Shown here: positions 4,844 to 39,300 of the stretch, piece by piece | Position numbering within the stretch: position 1 is the stretch's first letter | How the letters are laid out: the number at the start of each line of letters is the position of its first letter | NCBI GenBank assembly: GCA_016866875.1 | Contig: VGKY01000002.1 | Coordinates: 31,688 to 95,687 of the forward strand | Length of the DNA stretch: 64,000 bases | Source of the DNA: Candidatus Peribacteria bacterium | Lineage (GTDB): Bacteria > Patescibacteriota > Gracilibacteria > Peribacterales > Peribacteraceae | Reading direction: 5' to 3' | The notes under the pieces: generated by a model | The model's database searches: none | What the model was told of the DNA's origin: nothing | What the model saw: the letters and a program-made list of their open reading frames with translations, nothing else | Translations under genes and position numbers: made by a program

Positions 4844-7786
4844 TTGAGACAAAAAACGCCAATTTCGGCATTCTTCATCGTCGCTATCCTTCTGCAGCAC
4901 ATATCCGCATATGCGAGCAGCTGGAATCCGGGACTCCTCGTGAATACCGAAACCTTTCAGGTGATCGACGATGCCGACACAACATCGGATCTCTACGTTC
5001 GGTTTGGAGACACATTGAATAAACGTCTCACATTCGAGCGCACGCTCGATCGCTTCAATTTCAATGACGATGTCTACGTGTCTGGCGATCTGAATGTGAA
5101 GGGAACCGCATCAGGTAAGACAATCTTCGGTATGGAATCCGTACGGTCCTCAGGTTCCCTCGTCTGGGAAGGAGCTGCATCCGGTGCAAGCCTGTGGGTG
5201 TCGCAGTTCAGGGGAGCGGGACTCGTCACCTCCTGCAATGCCGACAACGAGACTCTCGCCTGGAATGCCACGACGCAGCGGTTTGAATGTGGGGATGACG
5301 ATGGTGGAGGAAGCTCCACCCTTCAGCAAGCGTATGACGCCGACGCAAACGGCAATGATGCAAAAATTGCCTTAACAAGCGACGATGACTCGCTCGTCTT
5401 TTACAATCCAGCATCTGGAGGCACAGATAGCGGCTTTGTGCTTACAGTTCGTCAGTTGGCGACGGCGGGATCGGGCATGTACGTCGATTCCAATGCAACA
5501 AACGGAGCTGTTCTTGCTCTGAACAATCGTCGCGATGGTGGACAACAGCGCTTGGCGCCGCACATTATGTTTGGATACAATGGCGCCTTCTCGACGCGTC
5601 TGTATCAATCAGGAAGTAACACGCTCGCAACGAATGCGCACATACTCCCCGAAACGAAAAATACCTACGACCTCGGTTCACAATCACTTCGATGGCGAAG
5701 CCTCTACCTCTCAGGGTCGAGCCTGCACATTGGTGCAACGGGCAATGAGGCAACCGTCGGGTACAACAGCGCACAGGACTTCTTCTACATTGACCCGGCG
5801 GGCAATGGCACGCCGAGCGTCAGCGTCAAAGATAATGGAAATATGGGTATTGGTACCATTGCTCCTGAAACAAAACTGGAGGTGGTGGGAACCGCATCGG
5901 GCCGCATCATCCACGCGAATGATAAGCTTACGAGTTCTGGAGGAGCCATCATCGATGGCGGAAGCCTGATCATTGGAGCGCGGCAAAACGCAACCGAGCA
6001 CACGTTCACATCGGGATGCAACTGTCTCGATAACCCCGCCGCGGGTACCTTTGGCAATGATGCAAGCCGTAATGGAGTCGTGTCATCGGTTGTGTACAAG
6101 GGCAAGCTCTTCGTTGCAACGAACGAAACAGATGCCGGCGGTGTGTACCGCTACGATGGCGGCACGACATGGACGCTCGTCACCTATGCCGTAGGAGAAG
6201 CGATCTCGACTGATTCGGCGAACATCGACTCGTACGTTCTCGCCGTATTCGATAACACCCTCTACATCGGAAGCCAGGGTACAGCTGACACTGCGGGTCT
6301 CTACTCCAGTACGACTGCGCATACAACCGCCAATTCCTTCACGCTCGTCAACTCCACACGCGGCAGTTTCGGTATGGGTGAAACGGGCATCGACGGTATC
6401 AGTAGCATGACCGTCTGGAACGGTAACCTCATTATCTCCACGCAGGAAGCCAACGACTGGGAACTCGGACGCTACGATGGTGGCACCACCTTCAGCCAAA
6501 TCAACACTACTGGTGGCAAGTTCGTCGCCGCAGATACAGCGGACATCGACGGCGCCGTTCTCGCAGTCTACGGCGGAAGACTCTTCATCGGCGCCGCCAC
6601 GGCCAGCACGACCGCGCGCGTCGGCGTCCATGACGGAGTAGGCACCACCATCACCGATCTCAATGCCACAAAAGGCACGTTCGGCGCCGATACATCTACC
6701 GTCAACGTGACATCCTTGGCCGTGCACAACGGGCAGCTCTACGTCGGAACGAGTAAGACGAATGCGGGCGCAGTGTACCGATGGCTCCCCGATTTCCTCT
6801 CGTCGAGCACCTCCGTAACCAACTTCGACCGGGTGAACTTCGGGCTGGGTGAGATGACCTCGGGAGAAACGGCAAACCTCATCGATTCGGTCATTCTCCG
6901 TGTATACAATGGCAGACTCTACGCAGGAACACAAACGGGAACCGATAACGCAGCAGCGATTTACGTGTACGACGACGTCCCAGATAGCTGGACGATGATA
7001 AACGGAACCAGAGGTACGTTCGGCACCAATACAGGCGTGAATGATGTAGTAAGCATGCAAGTGTTCAACGATGAACTCTACGTAGGAACGGAAGAGACCG
7101 ATGCCGGATCTGTCTACAGCTGGAATAAGAACGAAGAGAATTCCTACAGCCTCAAGTTTGAAAGCGAGAACAGTAACTTCGGCTCTATTTCATTTGTAGG
7201 CACCAATGCTCTCGACACGCATGACCGGCACGGAACCTTCCGCCTCTCGCATGGCGTCGCGCTCAATACTGGGGCTTTCGATTACGCCGAGGACTATCCG
7301 ACGAGCGATACGTCGCTCGAAGCCGGCGAGATCGTCGCAATCTCCGAAACTGGGGGGGGAGCCGTCATGCGTGCAAACTCCAATAACGACGCCGTTGGTG
7401 TCATCTCAGAAAACCCGGGCTTCCTTTTGCAGCCAACTGTGGAGCAGAGCGCAGTATCGCACTACGTTCCCGTTGCGCTGGTCGGCAGAGTGCCTGTAAA
7501 AGTGAGTGCCGAGAATGGACCCATCACTCCGGGAGATTCCCTCACGGTCTCTTCAAAGCCGGGAATCGCCATGAAGGCAAAGGCATCTGGTCGCATCATC
7601 GGTCGTGCGATGAGCTTCTTTGAGGGGCCAGGGGTAGGCAGCGTGCTTCTCTTCATCAACATCTCGCACCACGCTGCAGACGATGAGCTGGCATCGCTTT
7701 CTGCTTCAACGGTAGAAAAGCTCGAAGCCCAGGTCAGGCAATTGCAACGAAAGATCAATGGCCTGCAGCGCAAAGCAAGAGATTGA
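4844..7786 (+). CDS. giant secreted surface protein (paralog family; 7 Kelch-like blades; C-terminal coiled coil)
   Basis: TTG start. Signal peptide ISAFFIVAILLQHISAYA. Family N-terminal block SSWNPGLLVNTETFQVIDD and the RFNFNDDVYVSGDL motif. Seven repeats of the type V(Y/F)xGxL(Y/F)(V/I)G(T/S)...G.VY.(W/Y). The C-terminal block YVPVALVGRVPVKVSAENGPITPGDSL is followed by a heptad-like tail. Confidence 0.8.
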   Translation: MRQKTPISAFFIVAILLQHISAYASSWNPGLLVNTETFQVIDDADTTSDLYVRFGDTLNKRLTFERTLDRFNFNDDVYVSGDLNVKGTASGKTIFGMESVRSSGSLVWEGAASGASLWVSQFRGAGLVTSCNADNETLAWNATTQRFECGDDDGGGSSTLQQAYDADANGNDAKIALTSDDDSLVFYNPASGGTDSGFVLTVRQLATAGSGMYVDSNATNGAVLALNNRRDGGQQRLAPHIMFGYNGAFSTRLYQSGSNTLATNAHILPETKNTYDLGSQSLRWRSLYLSGSSLHIGATGNEATVGYNSAQDFFYIDPAGNGTPSVSVKDNGNMGIGTIAPETKLEVVGTASGRIIHANDKLTSSGGAIIDGGSLIIGARQNATEHTFTSGCNCLDNPAAGTFGNDASRNGVVSSVVYKGKLFVATNETDAGGVYRYDGGTTWTLVTYAVGEAISTDSANIDSYVLAVFDNTLYIGSQGTADTAGLYSSTTAHTTANSFTLVNSTRGSFGMGETGIDGISSMTVWNGNLIISTQEANDWELGRYDGGTTFSQINTTGGKFVAADTADIDGAVLAVYGGRLFIGAATASTTARVGVHDGVGTTITDLNATKGTFGADTSTVNVTSLAVHNGQLYVGTSKTNAGAVYRWLPDFLSSSTSVTNFDRVNFGLGEMTSGETANLIDSVILRVYNGRLYAGTQTGTDNAAAIYVYDDVPDSWTMINGTRGTFGTNTGVNDVVSMQVFNDELYVGTEETDAGSVYSWNKNEENSYSLKFESENSNFGSISFVGTNALDTHDRHGTFRLSHGVALNTGAFDYAEDYPTSDTSLEAGEIVAISETGGGAVMRANSNNDAVGVISENPGFLLQPTVEQSAVSHYVPVALVGRVPVKVSAENGPITPGDSLTVSSKPGIAMKAKASGRIIGRAMSFFEGPGVGSVLLFINISHHAADDELASLSASTVEKLEAQVRQLQRKINGLQRKARD

Positions 7787-7935
7787 GCTTGGGTATGGAT
7801 CCCGCTAGCAACATCTGCTCTGCCCCTCTAGGGGCATCATCAGCCTGATGACTCCTCGCTTATGCGTGGGATTCAAGTGTCCTCAAGCATGCTTGTACGA
7901 AGTGCGAGACACATGCATACCTGTACACTGCAGTT

Positions 7936-8484
7936 GTGCTGGAGACGGTACTAGCGGCGGTAGCCCTTGCCCTCCTTGAGTGGTGGGGATCCCCGTGGTC
8001 TGCGCCCGTCGCTCTCCTTCTGCTGATACTCTGCCTCCCAGGAATCTGGTACATGCGCGGTGCAGCCCCCTTTATCACAACCTCAAAGCGGACCATGCAA
8101 GCGATGCTGACGCTCGCAAACATCAAGCACGATGAGCGAGTGTACGACCTCGGCTGCGGCGATGGCAGACTGATCTTTGCAGCTGCCGCTCAGGGGGCAG
8201 ATGCCATCGGCTTCGAGATGTCCATGCCCGTATATCTCCTCGCAAAATCCTCTTCCCTGTTGCGGAGAAACACCTCGATCCGCTACGGCAACCTCTGGAG
8301 GCAGGACTATCGCGATGCCGACGTGATCTTCTGCTACTTCCTCAAAGATACCATGCAGGACTTTTACAAACGGATCTGGCCCACACTGAAGCCGGGGTGT
8401 CGCGTGGTATCGCATGCGTTCACCATCGACGGCAAGGAGGCAGCAGCGAGAGATGGGGATGCGGTGCTCTATGTGAAGGGGTAA
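7936..8484 (+). CDS. membrane-anchored class I SAM-dependent methyltransferase
   Basis: GTG start. Two N-terminal hydrophobic segments, then motif I VYDLGCGDGRL and ADVIFCYF. Confidence 0.65.
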   Translation: MLETVLAAVALALLEWWGSPWSAPVALLLLILCLPGIWYMRGAAPFITTSKRTMQAMLTLANIKHDERVYDLGCGDGRLIFAAAAQGADAIGFEMSMPVYLLAKSSSLLRRNTSIRYGNLWRQDYRDADVIFCYFLKDTMQDFYKRIWPTLKPGCRVVSHAFTIDGKEAAARDGDAVLYVKG

Positions 8485-8490
8485 CCTTAT

Positions 8491-8910
8491 CCAGCGTACG
8501 TTTCTACGTGCGCTTTATGTGAATGGATAGACCCTATCCAGCGCACGTTTCTACGTGCGCGTCCGCCGTACATCCATGGCATGTTTGTAGGTGTAACAAA
8601 TATTCCAGCGTACGTTTCTACGTGCGCGTCCCATCCATATATTGGGGGGTGTGTAAACACATCCACGTAACCCAACGTATGTTTCCCCGTGCGCGTCCCA
8701 TCCATAATGTTTGTGTTTGAACCCGTGTTCCAAAAATCCAGCGCACGTTTCTACGTGCGCGTCCCCCATACATCCATGGCACGTTTCTACGTGTAGCAAA
8801 TATTCCAGCGTACGTTTCTACGTGCGCTTTCATCCAAAATTAATTGCGCACGAAGAATCGTGCGCTGGGGGGCAAATAAAATCACACCCCACGCACGTTT
8901 GCACGCGCGT
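8491..8910. repeat. REP array, left of RAYT
   Basis: Copies of CCAGCG(T/C)ACGTTTCTACGTGCGC(G) at 8491-8513, 8538-8561, 8605-8628, 8738-8761 and 8805-8827. Degenerate copies near 8575-8597, 8671-8695, 8778-8793 and 8889-8909. Variant GCGCACGA-AGAA-TCGTGCGCTGG at 8846-8868. Confidence 0.9.
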
Positions 8911-9025
8911 TCCATCCTCAAAAGGAACCGAAATCTTCGCTTTCCTACAAGGAAAATACTCACATCAAAACGCAACGTCATGCGATCTGCAATCCCAAGC
9001 AATCTCGATGCCGTAGCATCGCATA

Positions 9026-9475
9026 GTGACGCAAAGACATTGGATGCAACATAGTGCCTGCATGCTCATCACATCGGTGACACTTCATCGCGCACCGGTA
9101 TTTGCATGCGAAACGTATGCACGGGCAGCTGTAGAAGGAATGTATTTCGTCCAACAACGTTACCCATTCTTTCTGTATGCATTCGTGGTGATGCCCGACC
9201 ACTGCCATATGCTTTTGTCTGTGCCGGAAAGCGGATCCATCTCGCGCATCATGCACACGTACAAGCGACACGTTAGTTTTGCGTGCGCCAAAGGTCCGCT
9301 GTGGCAGAAGAGATTTCATTGCCGCCTGATTGAAGATACCGCTACGGCTGTGGAGTACATTCACCTCAATCCCGTGCGCGCAGGCCTATCAGAACATCCG
9401 GAAGACTATCGGTGGTCTTCCGCATCCGGGAAATGGGATATCACGTATGTCGATGGCATGGGATGCCACACATAG
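9026..9475 (+). CDS. REP-associated tyrosine transposase (RAYT, IS200/IS605 Y1 family)
   Basis: 149 aa. HUH motif in FVVMPDHCHMLL. C-terminal YIHLNPVRAGL carries the catalytic Tyr, followed by DYRWSS. Size and motif order are typical of RayT/TnpA-REP. Confidence 0.8.
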   Translation: MTQRHWMQHSACMLITSVTLHRAPVFACETYARAAVEGMYFVQQRYPFFLYAFVVMPDHCHMLLSVPESGSISRIMHTYKRHVSFACAKGPLWQKRFHCRLIEDTATAVEYIHLNPVRAGLSEHPEDYRWSSASGKWDITYVDGMGCHT

Positions 9476-9499
9476 CCACCGCACGCGTTGTGAAATGAT

Positions 9500-9791
9500 C
9501 CATCGCACGCTTCTACGTGGGCGTTTAATTGCGCACCAAGAATGGTGTATTAAACGCACGAAGAATCGTGCGCTGGGGGGCGAAAAACACACCCCACGTA
9601 TGTTTCCCCGTGCCCGCCGCATCCATAATGTTTGTTACAAATCCAGCGTACGTTTCTACGTGCGCGTCCCATCCATATATTGGGGGGCGGGAAAACGCAT
9701 CCACGTAACCCAGCGTACGTTTCTACGTGCGCGTCCCACAATGTTTGAACCCGTGTTCCAAAAATCCAGCGCACGATTCTTCGTGCGCTGG
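9500..9791. repeat. REP array, right of RAYT
   Basis: Core copies at 9643-9666 and 9710-9733. Degenerate copies at 9500-9523 and 9592-9615. Variant copies at 9554-9576 and a fully palindromic CCAGCGCACGA-TTCT-TCGTGCGCTGG at 9766-9791. The composite unit 9550-9617 is a direct repeat of 8843-8910. Confidence 0.9.
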
Positions 9792-9821
9792 AGATGGACT
9801 ACGCAGTAGTCATGCGATCAC

Positions 9822-12041
9822 CTACGGATTCTTCGTTTCCCAGTTCAGGGTGATGAACCCAGCGTTTGCCTGTCCTGAACTGTTGGCCGCGAGCTTCACG
9901 AGGATAGTGATGAAACCGCCCGGTGTGTACGTACCTGCACCCTGCGGTCCGGTAATGTTCGCCGTCGTGAAGGACGTATTGGCAAGGGTTGCGCCACCCG
10001 TGAGAGCAACGGCAGCACCTGTCGTGTCGAGCAGCTTCACGGTGATGTGGTTTTGGCTCGTGGTACCCGTCTTCGTACGGTAGCGAAGCTGCAGTGCTTT
10101 TACCGGATCCCAACGGACGAAGTTATCCGGAATCCGCACGCGCGTCGAGACCCAGTAGTCCTGGATGGCGCTCTTCGTGGATGACCACTGGTAGGTATTC
10201 TCGAATCCAGAGTTCAGACCTCCAGAACCCACAAGCTGACCGATGTATGTAGAACCAGATTGGTAGTAGATGGCATTCGGGTACTCCGGATGGATGGAGA
10301 GGATATCGCCGCTTCCCTCGTTAATGCCCGTAGACCAGCTCAGCACCCCTGCCCCATTTGTCCTCAGAACGGCGCCGGATACGCCGGCGTTGCCCGGAAA
10401 GGTCATGGCCTGGCCGCGGATGGTGATCGTCCCATCAACCGTGAGCGTGGAGCCCGAGAGATACCCGGTGGCCTTCACGTCGTCATCAAAGACGAATCGC
10501 GGATTGGCGTCGTTACTGAACGTCAGGGATGCCGTATCCGCATCGTTGCCGAAGGTCAGGACGGCGGCGGAATCGCCGTTGTCCTCGTTGATTGTAAGAT
10601 CAGCATCTGTCGTAATGTTCCCCGTCGTGTTGACCGTTCCCGTGACATCAAGGTCATCGCTGAAGGAAAAGTTGTTCGTCGTGTCGTTGAAGCGAATCGT
10701 CTCGACTCCACCGTCGTTACCGAAGGTGAGGATGGCATCCGCTCCCGTGTTATCCTCGTTGATCGTGAAGTTGCCGTCACCGGAAACCGTACCCGTTGCA
10801 TCAACGTTCCCCGTGACGTCAATGTCGTCGCTAATCGCAAAGTTATTGGTCGTGTCGTTGAAGCGCAGGGTCTCCGCGCCTCCATCATTGCCGAAGGTCA
10901 ATATGGCATCCGCACCACCGTTGTCACTGTTGATCGTCAGGTTGGTTTTGATGGACGCAGACCCGTCCAAGATCAAGGAACCCGAGGACTGGATCTTGTC
11001 ATTGGCATGCAAGATGCGACCGGAAGCGGTTCCAAGAATTTCCAAAGCAGTTCCGGAGAAACTCGGACTGAGGCTAAAGACTGTGCTCGTAAGCGTTAGT
11101 CCCTGACCCGCACTGTAGGTCGTGCCACTATCCGTTCCACAGACGAAGCGTTGCGTGGTTGCGTCCCATGTGAGTTTGCCCGTTGTGGAATCACAGGTGG
11201 AGACGAGTCCTGGTCCCTTGAACTGCGAAACCCACAAGCTTGCGCCGGAGGCAGCGCCTTCCCACACGAGTGTGCCGGAAGATGAGAGGCCGGTCGAAGC
11301 GTGAATGCTTCCCACCGTATCCAATTCATATGCAGGAGCAGCAGTTCCGATACCGACGCGATTGGCTGTGGCATCGATGCTGAGCGTATTGGAGTCAAAG
11401 TTGATACCGTTGACACCTCCAGTGAGAGCGACCGACGTATCGTTGGCAAACGTCCACGTAGAGCTGTTCACGGTTACGGCATCACCACCGGCATCACCGA
11501 TGGTCAGCGTACCGCCATCGAACTGCGCATTGCCATCAACCTCGAGGGTGTTTTGTACGTAGACATCATCGCTGAAATCAAAGCGGCCGGCAGAGTTACT
11601 GAAGGTTAGAGTCTCATTCGTTGATGGTTGTCCGAACGTGAGCACGGCATCCGCTGCCGTCTGATCGCTGTTGATCGTGAGATTGGCCTTTGTGGAGATG
11701 GCACCATCGGCAATGATCGTGCCCGTTGCCGTGAGGTTCCCTTGCACATGCACGTCGTCGGTAAACTCGAATCGACTCGTCTCGTAGTCCCAGAAGATCT
11801 TTTCATTGAGCGTACCGCCGAACCGGAGTTCGATGTCCGTCGTAGAGTCCCCATCATCGATCGTCTGGAAGGATTCTGTATTCACCAGGAGTCCCGGACT
11901 CCACGAAGAGGCAGCGAGGGCAACAGGTGTATGAGAAAGTAAAAGCCCAAGCATCGCTGCGACAGACACTGCCTTCATTGCGGTATGTGTGTATGCGTGT
12001 TTCATGAAATCCCACCATTGTAGCGCAAAACGGACTCTCAT
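9822..12041 (-). CDS. giant secreted surface protein (paralog family; tandem about 45-aa beta-helix-like modules)
   Basis: Signal peptide ...LLLSHTPVALA. Same N-terminal block SSWSPGLLVNTESFQTIDD. Five or more modules ending xF(x)F(S/T)DD(V/I/L)xV(T/Q)G. Shares the SSGTLVWEGAASGASLWVSQFKGPGLV..C....W.ATTQRF.CG block with the 4844 gene and its C-terminal domain with the 12153 gene. Confidence 0.8.
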   Translation of the reverse strand: MRVRFALQWWDFMKHAYTHTAMKAVSVAAMLGLLLSHTPVALAASSWSPGLLVNTESFQTIDDGDSTTDIELRFGGTLNEKIFWDYETSRFEFTDDVHVQGNLTATGTIIADGAISTKANLTINSDQTAADAVLTFGQPSTNETLTFSNSAGRFDFSDDVYVQNTLEVDGNAQFDGGTLTIGDAGGDAVTVNSSTWTFANDTSVALTGGVNGINFDSNTLSIDATANRVGIGTAAPAYELDTVGSIHASTGLSSSGTLVWEGAASGASLWVSQFKGPGLVSTCDSTTGKLTWDATTQRFVCGTDSGTTYSAGQGLTLTSTVFSLSPSFSGTALEILGTASGRILHANDKIQSSGSLILDGSASIKTNLTINSDNGGADAILTFGNDGGAETLRFNDTTNNFAISDDIDVTGNVDATGTVSGDGNFTINEDNTGADAILTFGNDGGVETIRFNDTTNNFSFSDDLDVTGTVNTTGNITTDADLTINEDNGDSAAVLTFGNDADTASLTFSNDANPRFVFDDDVKATGYLSGSTLTVDGTITIRGQAMTFPGNAGVSGAVLRTNGAGVLSWSTGINEGSGDILSIHPEYPNAIYYQSGSTYIGQLVGSGGLNSGFENTYQWSSTKSAIQDYWVSTRVRIPDNFVRWDPVKALQLRYRTKTGTTSQNHITVKLLDTTGAAVALTGGATLANTSFTTANITGPQGAGTYTPGGFITILVKLAANSSGQANAGFITLNWETKNP

Positions 12042-12152: not shown

Positions 12153-14525
12153 CTACTGCAGGAGCTCGCGCATCTGCACCTTCATGCTGGCAAGATGCAC
12201 CTCCGCGTTGCTCTTAGCGGCCAATGTGAACTTGATGAGGATATCCTGCCCTGCAGTGAAGGTTGGCGCACCGGAGAACTCGACCTGCGTCGTGGCCCAC
12301 GATGTACTTGCAAGGCTCGTCGTGGATCCCGAGAGGGTAACCGCATTTCCCGCAGTATCGTAGACCGCGACACCCAGGGTATTGGCGCTCGTTGATCCAC
12401 TGCTCGTGCGGTACGTCACCTGCAAGGGATTATCCACCCACCCGACGAAATCGCTTCCGAGAGACACACGCACGTAGACATCGTAGTCCTGAAGGGTGCT
12501 TCTGGTGCTCGTCCACAGATAGTAATTGCGCTTGCTTGTCGCATCGTGACTCACGCTGAGCTGCCCGACGTTGTTGCTGCCGTCCGCTTTCAATGCCACA
12601 CGCGAAAATGCCGCGTGCAAAAAATCCTCTACGGTTCTCTCGCGATCATCGCTGCTCGTTACGCGGCGGTCGGAAACCGAAGTAATTGCGCCACCGGAGG
12701 TGACCACCTGAGCAAGGCGGATGACACTTTCGTCCGACGGGAATCCGATCGTCGAAACCGCGAGCCCGCCGGAACCGAAGAAGACGTAATTCGACGCATT
12801 GTTGCTCACTGTCGTCGAGCTGCCGCCGTAGTTGGTGACGGAGCCATTGAGCCTGTATGAGCCAGCATTGATGGTGATATTGAGTCCCGCGCCACTGCTG
12901 ACTTTAAGAGGCGCGTTCCCGGCAAGCGTCGTCAGGTTGATACCGTTGATGACGCCGGTCACGGTGAGGTCACCCTGGATTTGGACATCATCATTGAAGT
13001 TAAACCTTCCATTGGACCCATCGTACGAAAGCTGACGTGTGACGGAATTCCCAAACTGCAGTGCAGTTGTGCTATCCGAGCCGTCGCGGTCGATGACGAA
13101 GGTTCCCGAGTTGGTGCCGCCAGGAATGCGGGCAGGGTGAAAGACCCCCCCCGAACCGAGAATGGCAATGTTGCCGCTGCCGGTTCCAATATCGCGCTGG
13201 TCGAGCAAATCGGCGTTGAGCGCAAACGGGACGGAGCGCAACGGAGAGCGATCTGATGTAGTGCTCGAGGTATCGAAATCCAAAAGCTCGTAGCTCGTAT
13301 CTGCTGAGGATCCGGCCTTCACCTCGACCTGAAGGTACAGACTCAGCAGAGTCGCAGTACTCATGGAACTGAAGTTCGGGAGAGACGTCACAGAGCCCAT
13401 TTCCAGGGAGAAGTACCCTTGGCTATTGGGCGTCACGCTGTGCACCTCGTTCCATGACGCGTAGGTACTTGCGGCGGTGTTCACTGCTCCTGTACCTGTC
13501 ACATCGCCACTCACGTAGTCACCGGAGTTCCAGAAACTGAAGCGAACCTTCACAGCACTAGTCACGGCAGTCCCCGAGTTATCAAGCAGGTGACCGTTAT
13601 AGACGATGCGCTGCGGAGCAGTTGTCGCAGCTCGTACGGTGATACCGTGGAGCACCATCCCCGGAAGAATCAGCATGAGCGCTAAGAATTTTCCGACCCG
13701 ACGCTTGTGAGCATGTGTCGCCTTCCACACGCGCTTCTTTTTCTCTTGATCCATGAGCCACCCACCGAAGAAGAACCGGCGCAGTAGGCGGCGATTGGCT
13801 ATACATGTACCCAGAGAGCAACCCGAAGTCAGAGACGCGATGCCCGCTAAGGTCACGACAAAGAGTGAGGCGAAAACAAAACTGATTGCGGAAACGGTTG
13901 AATATCCAAAGATTCCAGTGGACGCGACAGGTTCCGGAGGAGCGGTATGAAATGCAGAGGCAATGGTGCTCGAGGATTGCACCGAGCGAATAGGAAACCT
14001 GCTCTTCTGGAACTCTGATGGTGACGCCGCCTGTACAGGAAGCATGAACTCGCTTGTCGGTAATGACTGTTTTGTGAAGAACTCCAAATTCGAGGGGCCA
14101 GGTTCCACGATAAGTTCTGGGGTTGACCACGTAGATCTGCTCTGCAGCGAAGACGAAGCTGACTCCTCAGGGAGTTCAAAGATCGGATCGCGGTCTTGCC
14201 CCCTCCTCCCTCCACCGCTACGCTCGCCACCACTCGTCCCATCCGACGTCCCTGCTACGGAAGCGCTACTCGATGAACTGCTACTCGTCGCGTGAGGCGC
14301 GAGTACAACCTGATAGCTCGTCGATATGCCGGGCAGAGCTCTCCACGTGACCGTGTCACTATTCATGGTGTAGCTCAGGGATACCATCGGGCCCGTTGCT
14401 ACAGCATTGCCCGGATCTGCGTAGAGCTTGTACGACGTACTCTCCGCAGCGATTCCCCCACTCGGAAGAGCCGTGGCAATGCAGACCGCAAGAGCGCCGA
14501 GGAGCAAGCGAAAATTGATGTGCAT
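12153..14525 (-). CDS. surface protein (paralog family), apparently a two-part ORF
   Basis: 790-aa ORF. The N-terminal 257 aa have their own signal peptide, a poly-Ser tract, then a TM segment plus an Arg-rich tail. A second Met (13754) is followed by a second signal-like segment, then GRFNFNDDVQIQGDLTVTG and the family C-terminal domain. Confidence 0.7.
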   Translation of the reverse strand: MHINFRLLLGALAVCIATALPSGGIAAESTSYKLYADPGNAVATGPMVSLSYTMNSDTVTWRALPGISTSYQVVLAPHATSSSSSSSASVAGTSDGTSGGERSGGGRRGQDRDPIFELPEESASSSLQSRSTWSTPELIVEPGPSNLEFFTKQSLPTSEFMLPVQAASPSEFQKSRFPIRSVQSSSTIASAFHTAPPEPVASTGIFGYSTVSAISFVFASLFVVTLAGIASLTSGCSLGTCIANRRLLRRFFFGGWLMDQEKKKRVWKATHAHKRRVGKFLALMLILPGMVLHGITVRAATTAPQRIVYNGHLLDNSGTAVTSAVKVRFSFWNSGDYVSGDVTGTGAVNTAASTYASWNEVHSVTPNSQGYFSLEMGSVTSLPNFSSMSTATLLSLYLQVEVKAGSSADTSYELLDFDTSSTTSDRSPLRSVPFALNADLLDQRDIGTGSGNIAILGSGGVFHPARIPGGTNSGTFVIDRDGSDSTTALQFGNSVTRQLSYDGSNGRFNFNDDVQIQGDLTVTGVINGINLTTLAGNAPLKVSSGAGLNITINAGSYRLNGSVTNYGGSSTTVSNNASNYVFFGSGGLAVSTIGFPSDESVIRLAQVVTSGGAITSVSDRRVTSSDDRERTVEDFLHAAFSRVALKADGSNNVGQLSVSHDATSKRNYYLWTSTRSTLQDYDVYVRVSLGSDFVGWVDNPLQVTYRTSSGSTSANTLGVAVYDTAGNAVTLSGSTTSLASTSWATTQVEFSGAPTFTAGQDILIKFTLAAKSNAEVHLASMKVQMRELLQ

Positions 14526-16090: not shown

Positions 16091-17319
16091 TCCCGTGGTT
16101 GAAGCAGGCAATCGGCCAGCGCAGCGCTTTACGGATGTCGTACCATGCCGCAAAAGCATTGCTGGCTGCCGCAGCCTACGGGTTTCCTGCGCGGAATCTC
16201 ACCGTCATCGGCCTCACAGGAACGGATGGTAAGACCACCACCTGCTCGATGATTCGTCATGTGCTTACGAAAGCCCATTACCGTGTAGGCCTTGCGTCCA
16301 CTGCTTTCTTTGACGACGGGACAGGGCTCCAGGCAAATCCCTCTCATCTCACATCCATCAGTCCGTTTGTGTTGCAGAAATTGCTGCGCACGATGATGCG
16401 CAACGGCTGCACCCATGCGATCCTCGAGTGCTCCAGTCACGGTCTCGTCCAGCACCGCCTCGACTGGACGTTTCCGAAGGTGGCCGCCATCACCAATACC
16501 GCACCGGAGCACCTCGACTACCACGGCACTATGGAACTGTACCGTAAGGACAAGGGCATCCTCTTTCGGATGCTGCATGGACGAGGAACGAAGGTGCTGA
16601 ATGGCAACGATGAAACCTTCGCGATGTACTGCCGTATCGCGTCGACTGTAACCTTAGACTGGAATTCGCCTGAGGCTCGAGAGAATGCCGCTGCACTTTC
16701 CCTGCAGATCCCGGGCGCATTCAATCGCGACAATGCGCTCTGTGCGATGAGTGTGTGTAGCGCTCTCGGGCTCGATGTGGAGGCGTGCAAGAAGGCTCTG
16801 GCAACATTTCCCGGGGTTCCGGGTCGCATGGAACGCATCGACGAGGGGCAGCCCTTCGCCGTGTTTGTGGATTTTGCCGTTTCACCGCAGTCCTATGAAA
16901 AGGCATTGCAGACCCTCAGAGAGATGGTCGGGGAATCCGGAAACGTCATCGTCCTGTGCTCAAGCTGCGGCAATCGCATGCGCGAGAAGCGACCGGAGAT
17001 CGGCAGGATCTGCTCTGTGCTAGCAGACATCGTCATAGCAACCGAGGATGAAACGTACGGAGAAGATCCGCACGCGGTTCTGGAGGAGCTCTGGGCCGGC
17101 ATCGACCAAGCTCAGTGCGAAGCACACAACATCTTCGACCGAAGGGAAGCGATCATCTTCGCTTTGAAAAGTGCAAAGCCCGGAGACGCCGTCGTTTTTT
17201 GCGGCATGGGCCCCTTCACGACGATGACGAAGCTTACAGGGAGAGTGCCGTGGGACGAGCGGGCGATCGTGCGGGAGGAATTGGCAGCCATGGGATATGC
17301 ATCCTCCCCTCTCCCATAG
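16087..17319 (+). CDS. Mur ligase family protein (MurE-like UDP-MurNAc-peptide ligase)
   Basis: P-loop GLTGTDGKTTT. Also AITNTAPEHLDYHG, NRDNALCA, GRMERI, and TEDETYGEDP at the position of the MurE DNPR block. Confidence 0.7.
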   Translation: MIPWLKQAIGQRSALRMSYHAAKALLAAAAYGFPARNLTVIGLTGTDGKTTTCSMIRHVLTKAHYRVGLASTAFFDDGTGLQANPSHLTSISPFVLQKLLRTMMRNGCTHAILECSSHGLVQHRLDWTFPKVAAITNTAPEHLDYHGTMELYRKDKGILFRMLHGRGTKVLNGNDETFAMYCRIASTVTLDWNSPEARENAAALSLQIPGAFNRDNALCAMSVCSALGLDVEACKKALATFPGVPGRMERIDEGQPFAVFVDFAVSPQSYEKALQTLREMVGESGNVIVLCSSCGNRMREKRPEIGRICSVLADIVIATEDETYGEDPHAVLEELWAGIDQAQCEAHNIFDRREAIIFALKSAKPGDAVVFCGMGPFTTMTKLTGRVPWDERAIVREELAAMGYASSPLP

Positions 17320-17339
17320 GGAGAGGGGGTCTGTGTGTG

Positions 17340-17722
17340 TAACACCACTGATTGCAGGGTCTCTAATTGTGCGAATGTCATTCTGTGTTTTCTATGGGTT
17401 TGCCATTTCTTTGGCGCAAAGAAATGGCAGAAAGAAACAGTGTCGCTATCGGGATGATGCCTATGCATATCAGCTCACGCAGCGGAAAATGCGAACTCCT
17501 CGCTCGTCCGCTTCGGCGGACTCACTCGTCAAACATGCGCATTTTCTTGCGCTGCGCTCACTGTATGCATGACGGCATCATCCCGGAAGCGACCAAACCC
17601 TGTTTGTATCGCACATATTCTTCTATCGCTTGCGAATCGCATTTCCCTCTCCTCCCAGAGAGCCTGCCTGCGGCAGACAGGCCTACCTGCCGGTAGGCAG
17701 GGGTTAGGGAGAGGGGTCGTAT
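17340..17722. repeat. intergenic stack of short palindromes
   Basis: 12-bp perfect stem GCCATTTCTTTG gcg CAAAGAAATGGC at 17402-17428. GTCCGC TTCG GCGGAC at 17506-17521. Nested CCCTCTCC...GGAGAGGG (17645-17715) encloses CTGCC tgc GGCAG and CCTGCC ggta GGCAGG. Confidence 0.8.
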
Positions 17723-17728
17723 AGCAAA

Positions 17729-17754
17729 CCGGCGTTCCCAAAGGGGAACGCCGG
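17729..17754 (-). terminator. intrinsic terminator candidate for the small minus-strand ORFs
   Basis: 11-bp stem CCGGCGTTCCC / GGGAACGCCGG with a 4-nt loop. On the minus strand it is followed by TTTGCT. Confidence 0.5.
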
Positions 17755-17907
17755 AAATCTTTCAATCCTCTCCTAAGCAGTCGCCCTGCTGGCGAAGTCG
17801 TCGTCGCTCACGCCTGGAATCATTGATCCGAATCCAAGCGATCACGATGATTCCCAGCAAGGCCGCGCCAATGCGGATTGCTAAATGAAGAACCAAAAAG
17901 TCGGGCA

Positions 17908-18132: not shown

Positions 18133-18350
18133 ACCTTCCTCCTCCTCCTTGAAAGACAGCTACGTCCCCAGACAAGCGGCTCTGCCGCTAAAAGATCTGG
18201 AGACAGTCGCTGCCTCATGCGTATGATGTGAAGGAGCTGGGTATTAGTACTATTTTATAACTATTACATATTTTGTCAAATAGTGGATTTACGGCTCTTT
18301 GTGGGCATTTGTACACTTGAACGTTCAACTTCATCAGGATAGTACAAGGG

Positions 18351-18589
18351 ATGCTCCCCTATGACGTCTATATCGTGAATGCTCCGACGGGTCTTACTAC
18401 ACGGGAGTGAACAATGATGTGGAGCGTAGAGTTGGAGAGCACAACGAAGGCACAGACCCGAAGGCGTACACCTTCAAACGTCGACCGGTGACATTGGTCT
18501 ACGTATCGGACTTCGGGGACATATGGCAAGCCATCGATTATTATCTCAATGCATCAACCAGACACATTACGATCTCTACCGCAACATAG
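18351..18589 (+). pseudogene. GIY-YIG nuclease family gene, frameshifted
   Basis: Frame a: MLPYDVYIVNAPTGLTTRE-stop carries the GIY-like block. Another frame continues ECSDGSYYTGVNNDVERRVGEHNEG...RRPVTLVY (YIG block and conserved Arg/Glu). The usual C-terminal block is absent. Confidence 0.6.
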
Positions 18590-18591: not shown

Positions 18592-18664
18592 TGTCATGCT
18601 GAGCGTAGTCGAAGCAAGACACGCTACATTCTGCGACGTCCCTCGACTACGCTCGGGATGACAC
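18592..18664. repeat. palindromic element family A, copy 1
   Basis: TGTCATGCTGAGCGTAGTCGAAGC...CCTCGACTACGCTCGGGATGACA. The arms are reverse complements. Confidence 0.9.
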
Positions 18665-27931: not shown

Positions 27932-28855
27932 CTACCACTTTCCTCCTCCTCCCCCACCCCCAAACGAGCCTCCACCAAAGCCTCCAAATCCTCCGCCTCC
28001 TCCACCCATCCCGGAGCCGCCATACCAGATTCCCCTTCTGTGTCGTCGCACACCTCCGTTTCTGGAAACGAGATAGTCAAAGAGCAGGCCAAGACCCGCA
28101 AGCACGGGAATGCTCCACCACCAGACGAGCGATACGGCAAGAACAACACCGATAAGTCCTCCCACAACCCCCCCGAGCCACCAGGACTTGGTGCGCCCAA
28201 AGAGCGCGACGAGAAAATCGAATCCAACAAACAGGAGGAAGAAGAAAAATTGACCCAAGCCAGATGATCCACGGGATTCTGAGGCATAGCGATCGGCTGC
28301 ATACTCGCCGCCAATGTGCTTCATCAGCGACTCAATGCCGGTCTGCACCCCCTGCGCATACTTCCCCTCACGAAACGAAGGAGCAAAGTCCGTCTCCACG
28401 ATTCCTGCAGCAACGATGTCGGGAACGGCGCCCTCAAGACCATATCCTGTTGCGATAAACGACTGACGCTCTTCGTAGGCGATGAGGATGAGAATGCCAT
28501 TGTGATACTCCTTTGAACCAATGCCCCATTTGCGACCGATGGCAACTGCGACATCGGCGATAGGCTCGCCATCCAGGGTCGAAACAATGAGAATCGCAAT
28601 TTCATTGCTTGTCTGAGTGCGATACTCCCGCAGGGTCGATTCCAGGGACGCTTCCTCGTCTTCGGAAAGGACCGCCGCTGTATCTGTCACGTATCCATCA
28701 TTTGGCGGTACGGAATAGGCAAAAGCAACGGCAGGAAAGAGCAAAGAGCATAAGACGAGAACGAATAATCGTTTTTTGGTTTTTTGGTTTTTTCGTTCGC
28801 CGTACACCGCGCAGAGACGAGGAAATGAGCAAACGGGAAAACGCATAGCACGCAT
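27932..28855 (-). CDS. TPM-domain protein (YgcG-like) with Gly-rich tail
   Basis: GYVTDTAAVLSEDEEASLESTLREYRTQTSNEIAILIV...NGILILIAYEERQSFIATGYGLEG is a TPM fold signature. TM segments and a GGGGGGFGGFGGG tail follow. Confidence 0.8.
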   Translation of the reverse strand: MRAMRFPVCSFPRLCAVYGERKNQKTKKRLFVLVLCSLLFPAVAFAYSVPPNDGYVTDTAAVLSEDEEASLESTLREYRTQTSNEIAILIVSTLDGEPIADVAVAIGRKWGIGSKEYHNGILILIAYEERQSFIATGYGLEGAVPDIVAAGIVETDFAPSFREGKYAQGVQTGIESLMKHIGGEYAADRYASESRGSSGLGQFFFFLLFVGFDFLVALFGRTKSWWLGGVVGGLIGVVLAVSLVWWWSIPVLAGLGLLFDYLVSRNGGVRRHRRGIWYGGSGMGGGGGGFGGFGGGSFGGGGGGGKW

Positions 28856-28864
28856 AACGTCATA

Positions 28865-29422
28865 CTACTCAAAATCCACCGCAGGCGCGACATCGCTTCC
28901 CTGCTGCGCTTCGAAGAATGCTTCGGCGTCAAACCCGAACATGCCGGCAAGCACATTGCTCGGGAACCGCTTCACGCGGAGATTGTATCTGCGAACTTCC
29001 TCATTGTAATCGCGCCGCGCGACGGCAATACGGTTTTCGGTTCCTTCGAGCTGCGTCATGAGATCGCGGTACGCCTGTGTGGCCTGAAGCTGAGGGTAGT
29101 TCTCCACAGCCACGAGAAGGCGCGAGAGAGCAGACTCCACCTCACCTGCGGCCGCAATGCGATCGCTGCGCGTCGGTGCGGTCTGCCAACGACTCCTCGC
29201 CTCGGTGATCGCCATGAAAGTCTCCTGCTCAAAGGAAGCAGCTCCTTGAACGGTGCTCACCAAGTTCGGGATGAGATCAACCCTCCGTTGGTACTGCGTC
29301 TCCACCTGTGCCCACGATGCGGCAACCGACTCGCTCCCCGTGATGAGTCCGTTGTAACCAGACCAGAGCCAGAGTGCGAGAACTCCGACGATGCCGATGA
29401 GAATCCAATGGATGCGCTTCAT
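28865..29422 (-). CDS. LemA family protein
   Basis: N-terminal TM, then YNGLI..ESV...WAQVETQYQRRVDLIPNLV...TEAR...YPQL...L..LEGTENRIAVARRDYN. Forms the classical pairing with the downstream TPM gene. Confidence 0.85.
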   Translation of the reverse strand: MKRIHWILIGIVGVLALWLWSGYNGLITGSESVAASWAQVETQYQRRVDLIPNLVSTVQGAASFEQETFMAITEARSRWQTAPTRSDRIAAAGEVESALSRLLVAVENYPQLQATQAYRDLMTQLEGTENRIAVARRDYNEEVRRYNLRVKRFPSNVLAGMFGFDAEAFFEAQQGSDVAPAVDFE

Positions 29423-29474
29423 GCGTAGAGCATAGGGAAAAATTCTGCAAAAAAGAAGAGTGGTGATCGCGCGA

Positions 29475-30023
29475 TCATTGGACCTCTTTAGCCCTCTCGT
29501 AGACAGACGTTATCTTCGCGATCGCCAAGACCTTGCCCTTCATACGTTGCTCCAGTGCAGATCGCGTCGCCTCGTGCGAAAGGCCTATGGCATCATTCAC
29601 CGCGTAGAGCGAAAAGACGTAGTGATGAAGCCCGGATCCTGCTGGTGGACACGGCGGCTCGAAGCCCGTCGTTCCCGCACTCGTCGTGCCTTGCACCGCG
29701 GCCCCGGGAAGCGTGCTCTCATTGATCTCTACGACATCCACAGGGATATCCCAAACGACCCAGTGCACAAAGTGCCCGGACGGAGCATCGAGATCATCGA
29801 GGACGAGGGCAAGAGACTTCGTCCCAGGCGGAACGCCAGAGATCCGTAGCGCAGGGGCCATACCAAGACCATCGCAGGTGTACTGCGCCTGGAGCGCCTC
29901 ACCATCGGCGAAGGCGCTGGAAGATAGGCTAAATGGAAGTTGCTGCGCTACCTTTGCGGAGTTGCCGCACGCCGCGAGTATCAGTGTACTCAGGAGGATG
30001 ATGGAGGCTCTGAAACGGATCAC
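29475..30023 (-). CDS. YbhB/YbcL (PEBP, Raf-kinase-inhibitor-like) family lipoprotein
   Basis: GTG start chosen at 30023 ahead of the signal IILLSTLILAAC. YTCDGLGMAPALRISG, LDDLDAPSGHFVHWVVWDIP, PPCPPAGSGLHHYVFSLYA. The longer ORF to 30299 runs through a repeat element. Confidence 0.8.
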   Translation of the reverse strand: MIRFRASIILLSTLILAACGNSAKVAQQLPFSLSSSAFADGEALQAQYTCDGLGMAPALRISGVPPGTKSLALVLDDLDAPSGHFVHWVVWDIPVDVVEINESTLPGAAVQGTTSAGTTGFEPPCPPAGSGLHHYVFSLYAVNDAIGLSHEATRSALEQRMKGKVLAIAKITSVYERAKEVQ

Positions 30024-30324
30024 CGTACCATTGTACCTGAGAAGGCAAGGATTGATGATCGTACGTATGAGAATGAAATGTCTGCCCTGCCTAGCGGAAG
30101 GTGCTGGGTTGGGTGGAGTGCCGCGTGCGGCACGAGCAAGGGAAGAGACGCCTCGCTCTAGCTCAGATCCTGGGCGTTGAGTAGCATGAGCCTGATCGGG
30201 ACGTAGCTCTGCCTGCCGGTAGGTAGGTCGGTTGGGCTCGGCATCTCTCAAGATGCCGGCAAACATAAAGACGCACATGCGCTCTAGCTCCCGATGCATG
30301 CATTCCTATAGCATTCACCACAGT

Positions 30325-30401
30325 CGGGACGTAGCTCAGTTGGCTAGAGCGCACGGTTCGGGACCGTGAGGCCGGAGGTTCGAGTCCTCTCGTCCCGACC
30401 A
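30325..30401 (+). tRNA. tRNA-Pro (anticodon CGG), CCA encoded
   Basis: CGGGACG TA GCTC AGTTGGCTA GAGC G CACGG TT-CGG-GA CCGTG AGGCC GGAGG TTCGAGT CCTCT CGTCCCG A CCA. Confidence 0.9.
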
Positions 30402-30488
30402 CATTCCCACACATTGATTTGACTGGAGACCTTTTTCGCTTAGGATTGCCACAGATGCAGCGATCTCGCTCCATCATCAGCATTATCA

Positions 30489-30926
30489 TTATTCCGACGC
30501 TAGGCGCCCGGAGGTGATGTGCTGACTGACTGCTTCTCCCCGCGCCAAGGAAGGCGCGTTTTTTGTATTCACTACTCCCCTTCCCATGGACTCCACCGAC
30601 CGCACGCCGGATTTCGATGGCCTTGTACATGTACAGGGGCATCCCGTACGCCTGAGGCTTCGCCTCTCAAGCCACCACGCGGCCGCTTGCCAGCTCTTAT
30701 CCGAGGCTTTGAGGATCGTTTGGATGCGAGCGACCTTGCACTCGGCCTCTGCCTTTTTTATAGCCACAGAAAACACCGATTTCTCGGTCTGCCATGTGCG
30801 GAAGGTTTCGTAGCTGATTCCCTCCATGGCACAGGCATCTTTGAAGCTACAGCCTTTTTTGAGCCATTTGCAGAGAGCAGCCTGCATCTCAGGGCTGAAT
30901 TTCGAGTTTCTTCCCATCAGATACAT
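30489..30926 (-). CDS. phage terminase-small-subunit-like HTH protein
   Basis: GRNSKFSPEMQAALCKWLKKGCSFKDACAMEGISYETFRTWQ...AAAWWLERR resembles TerS-like HTH proteins (recalled pattern GRPSKxTPE ... W.AAAW.LERR). The last about 55 aa are GC-rich and probably not native. Confidence 0.35.
   Translation of the reverse strand: MYLMGRNSKFSPEMQAALCKWLKKGCSFKDACAMEGISYETFRTWQTEKSVFSVAIKKAEAECKVARIQTILKASDKSWQAAAWWLERRSLRRTGCPCTCTRPSKSGVRSVESMGRGVVNTKNAPSLARGEAVSQHITSGRLASE
30541..30564 (+). terminator. intrinsic terminator downstream of tRNA-Pro
   Basis: CGCGCC aaggaa GGCGCG followed by TTTTTT. Confidence 0.6.
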
Positions 30927-30961
30927 TTTACAGCATCTTCTGTGTACAACTTTGCATTAGA

Positions 30962-31711: not shown

Positions 31712-31719
31712 ATGAGATG

Positions 31720-36747: not shown

Positions 36748-36913
36748 ATATACATTTTACAATATAAATATATAATAGTCCACATTATTCCGAGGGAACT
36801 AAACATCAAGAATTCCGTTTCCAGCAAATTTTGACGCGACTTTTTGTGTCACAGAATGTCTATTATGTTCAACACCTCAAGACAAAGAACACAGAAAATC
36901 GGTACTCAGGTCA

Positions 36914-37834: not shown

Positions 37835-37940
37835 GTCTGTATCCTAATAAATATATTTCTATTAGACAACTAATTATCAGTTGACTAACAGACAAACAAT
37901 TTCTTCCCAAAGTACACTCCCAAACACTATAATTTCTTTT

Positions 37941-38156: not shown

Positions 38157-38235
38157 AAGAAGAATTAAACGTACTCTACCTACTCCTATAGGCTCTTCTA
38201 CCTCTATTACTATAGTTCGAGGTACAGCAGGGCTA

Positions 38236-39274: not shown

Positions 39275-39300
39275 GCGCCATACCAGCTTCGAGTTTCAGG

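Follow-up and report, generated by a model that had tools for sequence, protein, structure and literature searches.

A probable REPtron in a Peribacteria genome: a RAYT gene of a distinct H-C-H subfamily flanked by short perfect-palindrome repeats

Introduction

A 1.34-kb intergenic region in the genome of Candidatus Peribacteria bacterium (GenBank assembly GCA_016866875.1) most probably constitutes a REPtron, a gene for a REP-associated tyrosine transposase (RAYT, also termed TnpA-REP) embedded in its cognate repetitive extragenic palindromic (REP) hairpins. The region spans positions 8485-9821 of a 64,000-nucleotide stretch of contig VGKY01000002.1 (positions 31,688 to 95,687 of the forward strand; hereafter the window). 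With a probability of about 0.85, we read the locus as a single-copy, vertically inherited, and domesticated HUH-Y1 RAYT gene flanked by cognate 23-nt perfect-palindrome REPs. A sequence-only reading of this DNA had proposed a REPtron, and the proposal is now supported by protein family models, by a match to the Escherichia coli TnpA-REP structure 4ER8, by inverted hairpin doublets, and by 10 of 10 related loci. Studies of such systems reportedly have been confined almost entirely to Proteobacteria with large genomes. The earlier remark that REPtrons are mainly proteobacterial was to the point, as the host belongs to the Peribacteria/Peregrinibacteria within the candidate phyla radiation (CPR), outside the classical range. 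The REPtron type itself is well known; what is new here is a distinct RAYT subfamily with an H-C-H motif and short perfect REPs of a non-GTAG kind, in CPR bacteria.

The RAYT protein

The region contains a single open reading frame (ORF), located at 9026-9475 on the plus strand, which begins with GTG and codes for a protein of 149 residues. The two motifs pointed out previously, VVMPDHCHMLL and YIHLNPVRAGL, are both present in the translation and supply the HuH histidines (H59-C60-H61) and the catalytic Tyr111 (in YIHLNP), with W93-Q94 between them. The protein scores 39.8 bits against Pfam PF01797 (Y1_Tnp; cutoff 23) and 105.5 bits against the RAYT-family equivalog model of NCBIfam, NF047646 REP_Tyr_transpos (cutoff 80), thus passing both. 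Its sole sequence match in the PDB is 4ER8, the E. coli TnpA-REP protein bound to a REP hairpin, and the alignment places H59, H61, and Y111 opposite H59, H61, and Y115 of the E. coli enzyme. An AlphaFold model built with 50 homologues (predicted local distance difference, pLDDT, 91.8; predicted template modelling score, pTM, 0.87) also has 4ER8 as its top Foldseek match (E = 3.4e-11, template modelling (TM) score 0.77). The IS200/IS608/ISDra2 transposases come next at ~2e-6 and a TM score of 0.55, ~5 orders of magnitude behind. As modelled, the protein has the RAYT fold together with the RAYT catalytic residues.

Features of the primary sequence further define the family to which this protein belongs. 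H59, H61, Y111, and W93-Q94 are invariant in 50 members of the clade, and a W130-S131-S132 (WSS) tail is likewise invariant in the clade. The tyrosine motif has the form Y---NP, with YIHxNP or a similar sequence in 120 of 120 close homologues; Y---NP is the signature of class 2 TnpA-Y1 proteins, and Y---Q that of class 1 and IS200 (PMC6006769). D-H-C-H (including two cases of N-H-C-H) is found in 105 of the 120 close homologues as against ~1 of 70 distant representatives, and the subfamily signature of the protein can be given as D-H-C-H, WQ, YIHxNP, and the WSS tail. An exhaustive search of 1.84 billion cluster representatives recovered 10,472 superfamily members at E <= 1e-3 and only 10 at E <= 1e-30, showing that the subfamily is compact; the closest named RAYT relatives come from Patescibacteria, Peregrinibacteria, and Peribacteria. 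Named relatives of the window's RF-1 belong to these groups without exception (63-77% identity), which places the window in a Peribacteria-class CPR bacterium. Because the homologues start with MTQRHW, the GTG at 9026 is the true start of the gene; the public gene calls begin at ATG 9062 and yield 137 aa, with the loss of 12 conserved codons at the N-terminus.

Hairpin repeats flanking the gene

The repeat unit is a 23-nt hairpin, CCA-GCGYACGT-TTCT-ACGTGCGC (type A), which is accompanied by a compensatory variant (type B) in which the loop-closing pair carries a T>A / A>T double change and the TTCT loop is unaltered. The hairpin GCGYACGTTTCTACGTGCGC has 11 matches at <=3 mismatches in the window, all of them within 8494-9788, and shuffled sequences lead one to expect 0.00; a limit of 5 mismatches brings in degenerate copies, again at the locus only. 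A systematic inventory of the 1.34-kb region yields 17 copies (10 intact and 7 degenerate), so that the earlier figure of about 15 was a fair one. Both sides of the gene are flanked, with 10 copies upstream and 7 downstream, and the intact copies comprise 7 of type A (+), 2 of type B (-), and 1 of type B (+). The 8-bp stem described earlier folds as predicted in single-stranded DNA (ssDNA) and is capped by a tetraloop; the calculated folding energy is -11.0 kcal/mol in the C variant, -11.2 kcal/mol in type B, and -7.5 kcal/mol in the T variant, whose stem includes one G.T pair, and the z-scores of the hairpin units lie between -3.9 and -6.0. The decayed copies no longer fold.

The upstream array begins 6 nt past the stop codon of a methyltransferase gene with an intact type A copy on the plus strand, a T variant with one G.T pair (8491-8513). 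It continues in the same orientation and type with an intact copy with a perfect 8-bp stem (8538-8560), a degenerate copy (8574-8596), an intact T variant (8605-8627), a degenerate copy that has lost its folding (8672-8694), an intact copy with a perfect stem (8738-8760), and another degenerate copy (8774-8796). Next comes an inverted doublet resembling the REP doublets known as REPINs or bacterial interspersed mosaic elements (BIMEs), at 8805-8868. It is composed of a forward type A hairpin (8805-8827), an 18-nt linker, and a reverse type B hairpin (8846-8868), and the whole folds into a single long hairpin (-22.5 kcal/mol, z -5.7). A last degenerate type A copy (8888-8910, plus strand) adjoins a unique, non-repeat leader (8911-9025) lying directly 5' of the RAYT start.

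Downstream of the gene, a second inverted doublet (9500-9576) combines a degenerate forward type A copy (9500-9522), a decayed, B-like reverse copy (9531-9553), and a reverse type B hairpin (9554-9576), and this doublet also folds as a long hairpin (-26.7 kcal/mol, z -7.6). Three type A copies on the plus strand follow, one degenerate (9593-9615) and two intact (9643-9665 and 9710-9732). The outermost REP is a type B hairpin at 9766-9788, whose stem is extended to 12 bp on the minus strand within 9765-9792 (-16.5 kcal/mol). Its complementarity to 8846-8868 is 100%, and the RAYT gene lies between the two. Inverted doublets in the style of REPINs thus are present on both sides of the gene, and the sister variant noticed previously, GCGCACGA-AGAA-TCGTGCGCTGG, was found at 8846-8868 and 9554-9576, with its reverse complement at 9766-9788.

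Co-evolution of enzyme and hairpins in related loci

Ten homologous loci (L008, L013/L014, L015, L016, L017, L023, L024, L025, L026, and L027) were compared with that of the window. In 10 of 10, the RAYT gene is bracketed by its own lineage-specific, short, GC-rich, and perfect hairpins, usually in the form of an inverted pair or doublets, and the homologues span at least five unrelated genomic contexts, always with their own hairpins. Among 16 hairpin types from 9 genomes, 0 stem pairs are mismatched, and stem positions 3-8 are occupied by 2-5 different Watson-Crick pair types while the two foot pairs (G-C and C-G) are invariant. The unpaired flanks carry an A on the 5' side in 15 of the 16 types and a G on the 3' side in 13, so that the foot reads (C/G/T)A|GC along one strand and (A/G)(C/A)C|GC along the opposite one, in an A|GC...GC|G pattern. 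A pyrimidine-rich loop is conserved as well. Stems that covary while foot and loop stay conserved imply recognition by a co-evolving protein, and the comparison shows co-evolution of enzyme and hairpin in the clade.

The loop sequences lend themselves to the same interpretation. The loop is TCCCT in both hairpin types of L013 and TTCT in both types of the window, the RAYTs of the two loci being ~66% identical; if the protein reads the loop, as was shown experimentally for group-3 REPs (PMC8266576), the same loop within each genome and different loops between genomes is the expected pattern. A C|T step at the 3' foot of the AGAA-loop strand is conserved in 15 of the 16 hairpin types, and this is the predicted cleavage site because the E. 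coli and Stenotrophomonas maltophilia enzymes cut at C|T. GTAG/CTAC was also considered as a conserved tag and rejected; its only occurrences span the junction of stem and loop in type A and in some relatives' hairpins, and it is absent from L017, L023, L024, L025, and L026.

Several additional features were observed at the related loci. In L013, a complete hairpin at ~6454-6520 is followed by four extra tandem copies of the 3' arm only, (ATCTACGTGCGC)(CTACGTGCGC)(CGTTCTACGTGCGC)(TACGTGCGC), and the same 3'-arm pattern appears again in the downstream flank at 7108-7564; the window has no such half-arm runs. These half-hairpin tandems suggest repeated breakage and rejoining, or else slippage, at the boundary between loop and 3' arm. 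In L016 (10001-12010), from a Peribacteraceae metagenome-assembled genome (MAG), the RAYT gene and its hairpins lie between thrS and dnaA, beside a likely replication origin. L024 (GCA_021734665.1, JAIPIN010000006.1) is labelled Kiritimatiellales, yet follows the order of the Peribacteraceae locus L017 gene for gene, with proteins that are 45-86% identical, and its contig, from the gene order and protein similarities, is probably mis-binned.

Hairpin copies also intrude on annotated genes. One copy in L025 (10450-10472) overlaps the 3' end of the annotated RAYT ORF, and one in L026 (10031-10052) lies in an N-terminal extension upstream of a conserved MSQRHP start, so that REP sequence has been absorbed into the gene calls and possibly into the proteins. 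In the window, the public annotation places a 72-aa minus-strand gene (8551-8769), which is probably spurious, wholly within the hairpin array. Together with the truncated RAYT start, these cases make public gene calls unreliable at such loci.

Growth of the array and dispersed copies

Three pairs of composite units recognized in the sequence-only reading are 77.8%, 84.9%, and 78.6% identical (<=56% for shuffles), and are parts of a larger direct repeat of 157 nt. This block, which consists of three REPs and their linkers, occupies 8604-8760 and recurs on the same (plus) strand at 9642-9788 with 87.3% identity; the third hairpin is of type A in the left copy and of type B in the right, the difference being the compensatory T>A / A>T change. 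Tandem Repeats Finder detected, also on the plus strand, a 47-nt duplication at 8466-8560 (2 copies at 87%) and an array with a 67-nt period at 8536-8827 (4.4 copies of a REP plus a ~44-nt linker). The first 47-nt unit takes in the last 19 nt of the methyltransferase gene, showing that the array grew at least partly by local tandem duplication. By BLAST, a ~100-nt block recurs 200 nt apart and the 157-nt block is copied across the RAYT gene. Given the 47-, 67-, and ~200-nt periods, the 157-nt block, and the 7 decaying copies, most of the array is accounted for by segments that were duplicated locally and then decayed; the RAYT may have contributed, but its action need not be invoked.

The outer hairpins have a second possible role. 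Read on the minus strand from 9792 to 9765, the outermost right hairpin presents a 12-bp stem followed by TTTTTGG, ~30 nt past the stop of the neighboring 739-aa gene, and by virtue of this stem, T-run, and position it looks like an intrinsic terminator. Two other hairpin copies have a similar terminator-like geometry, and L013 has a hairpin and T-run at the equivalent place. From this arrangement, a role of the hairpins in termination or insulation is plausible.

Dispersed copies appear to be scarce in the DNA examined. Outside the locus, no hairpin was found at <=5 mismatches in the window, nor in a total of ~82 kb that includes extensions of ~10 kb past each window end (19 kb); this total corresponds to ~7% of a genome whose size is assumed to be ~1.2 Mb. 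In 11 genomes, with ~261 kb of non-REPtron DNA, just two dispersed sites turned up: a REPIN-like doublet between convergent genes in L017 and, in L027, three variant copies separated from the RAYT by one gene. An exact-pattern scan of genome and metagenome contigs, with the host organism not among them, returned one relevant locus, L008, where the hairpin lies beside the RAYT gene and is present once in the Peregrinibacteria MAG. Six further exact-pattern matches were discarded as chance, since they fall in unrelated high-GC genomes with no RAYT nearby, and L007 was rejected as a syntenic locus for having no genes in common with the window.

These observations are also accommodated by an explanation in which the array is purely local. 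Slippage during replication, along with unequal recombination, would have built it, it would serve to terminate transcription or to insulate convergent genes from each other, and the RAYT would be a relic that does not act on the hairpins. Neither the 47- and 67-nt tandem periods nor the 157-nt block on both sides of the gene need a transposase, the outer hairpins are terminator-like on the minus strand, ~82 kb hold no dispersed copy, and 7 of 17 copies are decaying. We nonetheless consider this explanation unlikely. The RAYT gene is intact and its catalytic residues are invariant across the clade; homologues in at least five unrelated contexts are bracketed by hairpins of their own, which would be unexpected for mere local terminators; the covariation of the stems around a conserved foot and loop implies recognition by a co-evolving protein; and dispersed doublets exist in L017 and L027.

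Vertical inheritance and domestication

The window and L013/L014 are syntenic, sharing the 182-aa protein, the RAYT, large minus-strand proteins, an SLH protein, and a flavokinase, and the RAYTs of the window and L013 are 65.5% identical, within the range of their syntenic neighbors (58-76%). L017 and L024 share a different position (TyrRS, Band_7, RAYT, integrase, DUF218, PGK), and here the RAYTs are 63% identical and the neighbors 45-86%. The gene is single-copy in the 83 kb examined, and no tnpB-like gene is found among its neighbors. A gene that is single-copy, syntenic, and diverged like its neighbors is best described as domesticated and not as part of an active insertion sequence (IS), and the combination of single copy and vertical inheritance is a hallmark of RAYT groups 2 and 3 (PMC5581495). 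Conserved gene order at 66% protein identity indicates that the RAYT locus is old.

The alternative that the locus is an active IS200/IS605-family element, moving as a unit with hairpins as its left and right ends, draws on the common HUH-Y1 fold, on the perfect 23-nt inverted pair (8846-8868 and 9766-9788) that brackets the gene, and on the different genomic contexts of homologues in distant relatives. It is very improbable, as the protein scores only 23.5 bits against the NCBIfam IS200 model (cutoff 55), carries the Y---NP of class 2 and not the Y---Q of class 1, and is structurally ~5 orders of magnitude nearer to TnpA-REP than to the IS transposases. In addition, the gene is single-copy in 83 kb with no tnpB, two independent genome pairs show synteny with neighbor-like divergence, and 17 hairpins are present, not two ends.

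The locus is base-identical in seven assemblies (at least five JGI samples and one ENA assembly), all of those covering it being short-read assemblies, and the array therefore is not an artefact of one assembly. Contigs of this population come from JGI samples 3300020197, 3300020198, 3300020084, 3300020214, and 3300020109 and from ENA ERZ27247963. Comparison of the seven disclosed no copy-number variant. The suggestion that the locus might be a recombination hotspot found no support, since the assemblies contain no structural or copy-number variant and <=2 single-nucleotide polymorphisms over up to 19 kb. A downstream gene call of 718 instead of 739 aa in L003 and two contigs ending just outside the repeats were considered as strain variation and rejected; with DNA identities of 99.96-100%, they reflect gene calling and coverage, not structural variation. 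That the array is an assembly artefact or a CRISPR-like array is hardly credible, for although the assemblies are all short-read and the regular 67-nt period in 8536-8827 (23-nt palindromic repeats with ~44-nt 'spacers') superficially resembles repeats and spacers, the sequence is identical in seven assemblies, the 'spacers' resemble one another and recur as duplicates on either side of the gene, repeats of both orientations are present, no cas gene lies among the neighbors, and no Rfam family comes near threshold.

Points that weigh against the assignment

Several findings count against reading the locus as a REPtron. First, the middle HuH residue is a cysteine and not hydrophobic, and a 2018 survey of TnpA-Y1 proteins found only L, V, I, F, Y, or M at this position; that survey was based on complete genomes and does not mention the CPR (PMC6006769). 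Second, the REPs have no canonical foot, as 5' GT[AG]G at or 1-2 nt from the hairpin foot is absent in 16 of 16 hairpin types, and the residues with which the E. coli enzyme contacts GTAG are not kept: E100 corresponds to Cys99, R104 falls in a 3-residue deletion, and the C-terminal tail with G160/E161 is absent (PMC6006769, PMC8266576). Hairpin recognition consequently must differ in detail from that in E. coli. Third, ~82 kb of the host genome held no dispersed copy, so that the classical spread of REPs through the whole genome is at most putative in this organism, and array growth by tandem duplication needs no RAYT activity. Fourth, neither a promoter nor a clear ribosome-binding site was identified for the RAYT gene, a scan of 7800-10200, including the RAYT leader, having detected no sigma-70-like promoter. 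Finally, binding, cleavage site, and strand transfer in the clade are drawn by analogy with other systems.

Proposed mechanism

On the REPtron reading, the enzyme would bind the folded, single-stranded hairpin, by analogy with the TnpA-REP proteins of E. coli, S. maltophilia, and Marinomonas (PMC3333891, PMC8266576), and would probably read the loop and apical stem, as for the short perfect REPs of group 3. Cleavage and rejoining would then take place close by, the most plausible site being the C|T step conserved at the 3' foot of the AGAA-loop strand, and these reactions may occasionally seed new REP or REPIN copies, such as the dispersed doublets of two relatives. The array of the window would owe its growth chiefly to local duplication, both segmental and tandem (47-, 67-, and ~200-nt periods; the 157-nt block), after which 7 of its 17 copies decayed, and its outermost hairpins probably double as transcription terminators or insulators for the flanking genes.

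Comparison with known systems

The REPtron of E. coli K-12 (tnpA-REP / rayT / yafM with y and z2 REPs; 4ER8), which belongs to RAYT group 2 / subclass 2.2 (Quentin et al. 2018), provides the best sequence and structure match. Both enzymes are HUH-Y1 proteins with Y---NP, and both genes are single-copy, vertically inherited, and flanked on both sides by two REP subtypes in inverted doublets (BIME/REPIN) (PMC6006769). However, the proteins are only ~25-30% identical, the one described here is 149 aa long and without the ~20-aa C-terminal extension, and its HuH motif is H-C-H as opposed to H-M-H in 4ER8 and DHLH in the subclass consensus. The E. coli REPs are imperfect palindromes of 30-40 nt with a bulge and an essential 5' GTAG, whereas those of the window measure 23 nt, are perfectly palindromic, and, lacking GT[AG]G, have A|GC at the foot; ~584 REPs are dispersed in E. 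coli (PMC3333891), compared with none outside the locus in ~82 kb here.

Systems of group 3 / subclass 2.5 (S. maltophilia Sm, Marinomonas MWYL1 Mb, Pseudomonas) likewise combine short proteins (~151 aa) carrying D-H-x-H and WQ with short perfect-palindrome REPs. The S. maltophilia Sm REP has an 8-bp stem and a 3-nt loop within a total of 23 nt, and its loop is critical for recognition (PMC8266576). In Marinomonas MWYL1, REPs cluster near their tnpA-REP genes, which has been attributed to recent arrival (PMC8266576); the local clustering in the window is a parallel, but this locus is old. Other features set the two apart. Group 3 / subclass 2.5 REPs have a GTAG either at the foot or 1-2 nt from it, and none do here; the tyrosine motif is YI[VI]ANP in that group and YIHxNP here; and the hosts of that group are Gammaproteobacteria whose large genomes often contain several REPtrons and hundreds of REPs.

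Flanking hairpins without GT[AG]G are also known from subclass 2.6 of the Bacteroidetes and from class 3 TnpA-Y1 proteins, where they are described as 'atypical secondary structures' (PMC6006769). Subclass 2.6 further resembles the present clade in having WQ, a YIH[QN]NP-like tyrosine motif, and an 'SS' tail motif (W130-S131-S132 in the clade), but is distinguished by N-H-[LIV]-H, a length of ~179 aa with insertions, and weak secondary structures, as opposed to D-H-C-H, 149 aa, and strong, perfect, GC-rich stems of 6-8 bp. Class 3 has a Y----Q motif, unlike the RAYT of the window. The IS200/IS605 elements (IS608, ISDra2) share the HUH-Y1 fold, the recognition of subterminal hairpins as ssDNA, and a gene bordered by palindromes, and differ from the locus in the points already given: a failed IS200 cutoff, Y---NP, a single copy at a fixed position, no tnpB, and many hairpins. 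Overall, the locus resembles group 3 / subclass 2.5 most closely in protein length and hairpin geometry and subclass 2.6 in the lack of the tag, and it departs from the textbook picture in its H-C-H motif, the absence of a GT[AG]G foot, the apparent scarcity of dispersed copies, and an array that expanded through local duplication. For each of these four departures, a precedent has been published. A search of open-access papers found nothing relevant on RAYT/REP systems in CPR or Peregrinibacteria, which is weak evidence of absence.

Genomic context and other features of the window

Positions 8485-9821 make up the whole gap between the gene for a 182-aa methyltransferase (7936-8484, plus strand) on the left and a minus-strand gene for a 739-aa, surface-protein-like product (9822-12041) on the right. 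The GC skew is too weak for calling leading and lagging strands, and an Rfam scan of the locus at permissive E-values returned only sub-threshold noise. The locus had been described as wedged between two convergent giant surface-protein paralogs; this holds insofar as paralogy is partial, and fails on the left, where the methyltransferase gene intervenes. The proteins concerned are a 980-aa product encoded upstream (4844-7786, plus strand) and the 739-aa product, which have in common an N-terminal domain of ~150 aa (37% identity); the latter in turn shares a C-terminal region (31% identity) with a 790-aa protein encoded at 12153-14525 on the minus strand. None of the three has a Pfam domain. 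They form a mosaic paralog family with repeated 'FGN...F.F.DDV.V.G' units and the N-terminal module of ~150 aa, their L013 orthologues are 58-75% identical, and their signal-peptide-like N-termini along with an SLH-domain protein close by point to a surface location, so that they are probably cell-envelope or surface proteins.

A VirD4/TrwB-like coupling protein (T4SS-DNA_transf, DUF87) is encoded ~2.5 kb to the left of the window start (L019, 5276-7510), and in L025 a similar coupling-protein gene (7327-9819) lies directly upstream of the RAYT gene. Type IV secretion system (T4SS) and competence genes handle ssDNA and could be a source of RAYT substrate, or their proximity could be a coincidence.

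Elsewhere in the window, a second hairpin-dense kilobase at 17.3-18.7 kb was considered and rejected as belonging to the REP family of the locus. Within it, a non-coding stretch of ~450 nt 3' of a Mur ligase gene (17303-17760) has several nested, unrelated inverted repeats, which include GC-rich hairpins and two 20-nt segments that pair over a long range (17442-17461 with 17574-17593). This stretch matches neither Rfam nor the REP family and may represent a structured RNA or stacked terminators. A GIY-YIG/UPF0213-like frame at ~18345-18560 is, by eye only, apparently frameshifted ('YDVYIVNAPTGLTTRE*' followed by 'NNDVERRVGEHNEGTDPKAYTFKRRPVTLVYVSDF' in another frame), and a 21-nt inverted repeat lies 3' of it at 18592-18663. 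Finally, a stretch at ~28000-40000 has a GC content of 45-50%, compared with 55-56% elsewhere, and a negative GC skew; it includes a 1675-aa ORF (31720-36747, minus strand) and may be an acquired island.

Significance

In the 2018 phylogenomic survey, RAYT-bearing genomes were significantly larger than RAYT-free genomes (PMC6006769), and the locus of the window and its 10 relatives extend the host range to a compact, co-evolving RAYT-REP subfamily that is kept vertically in very small CPR genomes. The subfamily contributes a signature of its own, consisting of D-H-C-H, the A|GC...GC|G foot, and no GTAG, and offers a minimal case for asking why domesticated RAYTs persist and how perfect-palindrome REPs are recognized.

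A further idea can be advanced only tentatively, as we think it rather less probable than not: Peregrinibacteria might harbor a distinct and anciently domesticated H-C-H RAYT subfamily whose REPs never build a genome-wide population, with the system persisting over the long term as a self-contained cis unit. Apart from the gene and the hairpins beside it, that unit would include no more than a few dispersed doublets. If this were true, RAYT maintenance would be independent of a large REPIN population, and would instead point to a local, host-beneficial function in streamlined ~1-Mb genomes, for example, termination or insulation between convergent genes, or local processing of ssDNA at this position. 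The locus and its relatives then would represent a minimal model system for what RAYTs are for.

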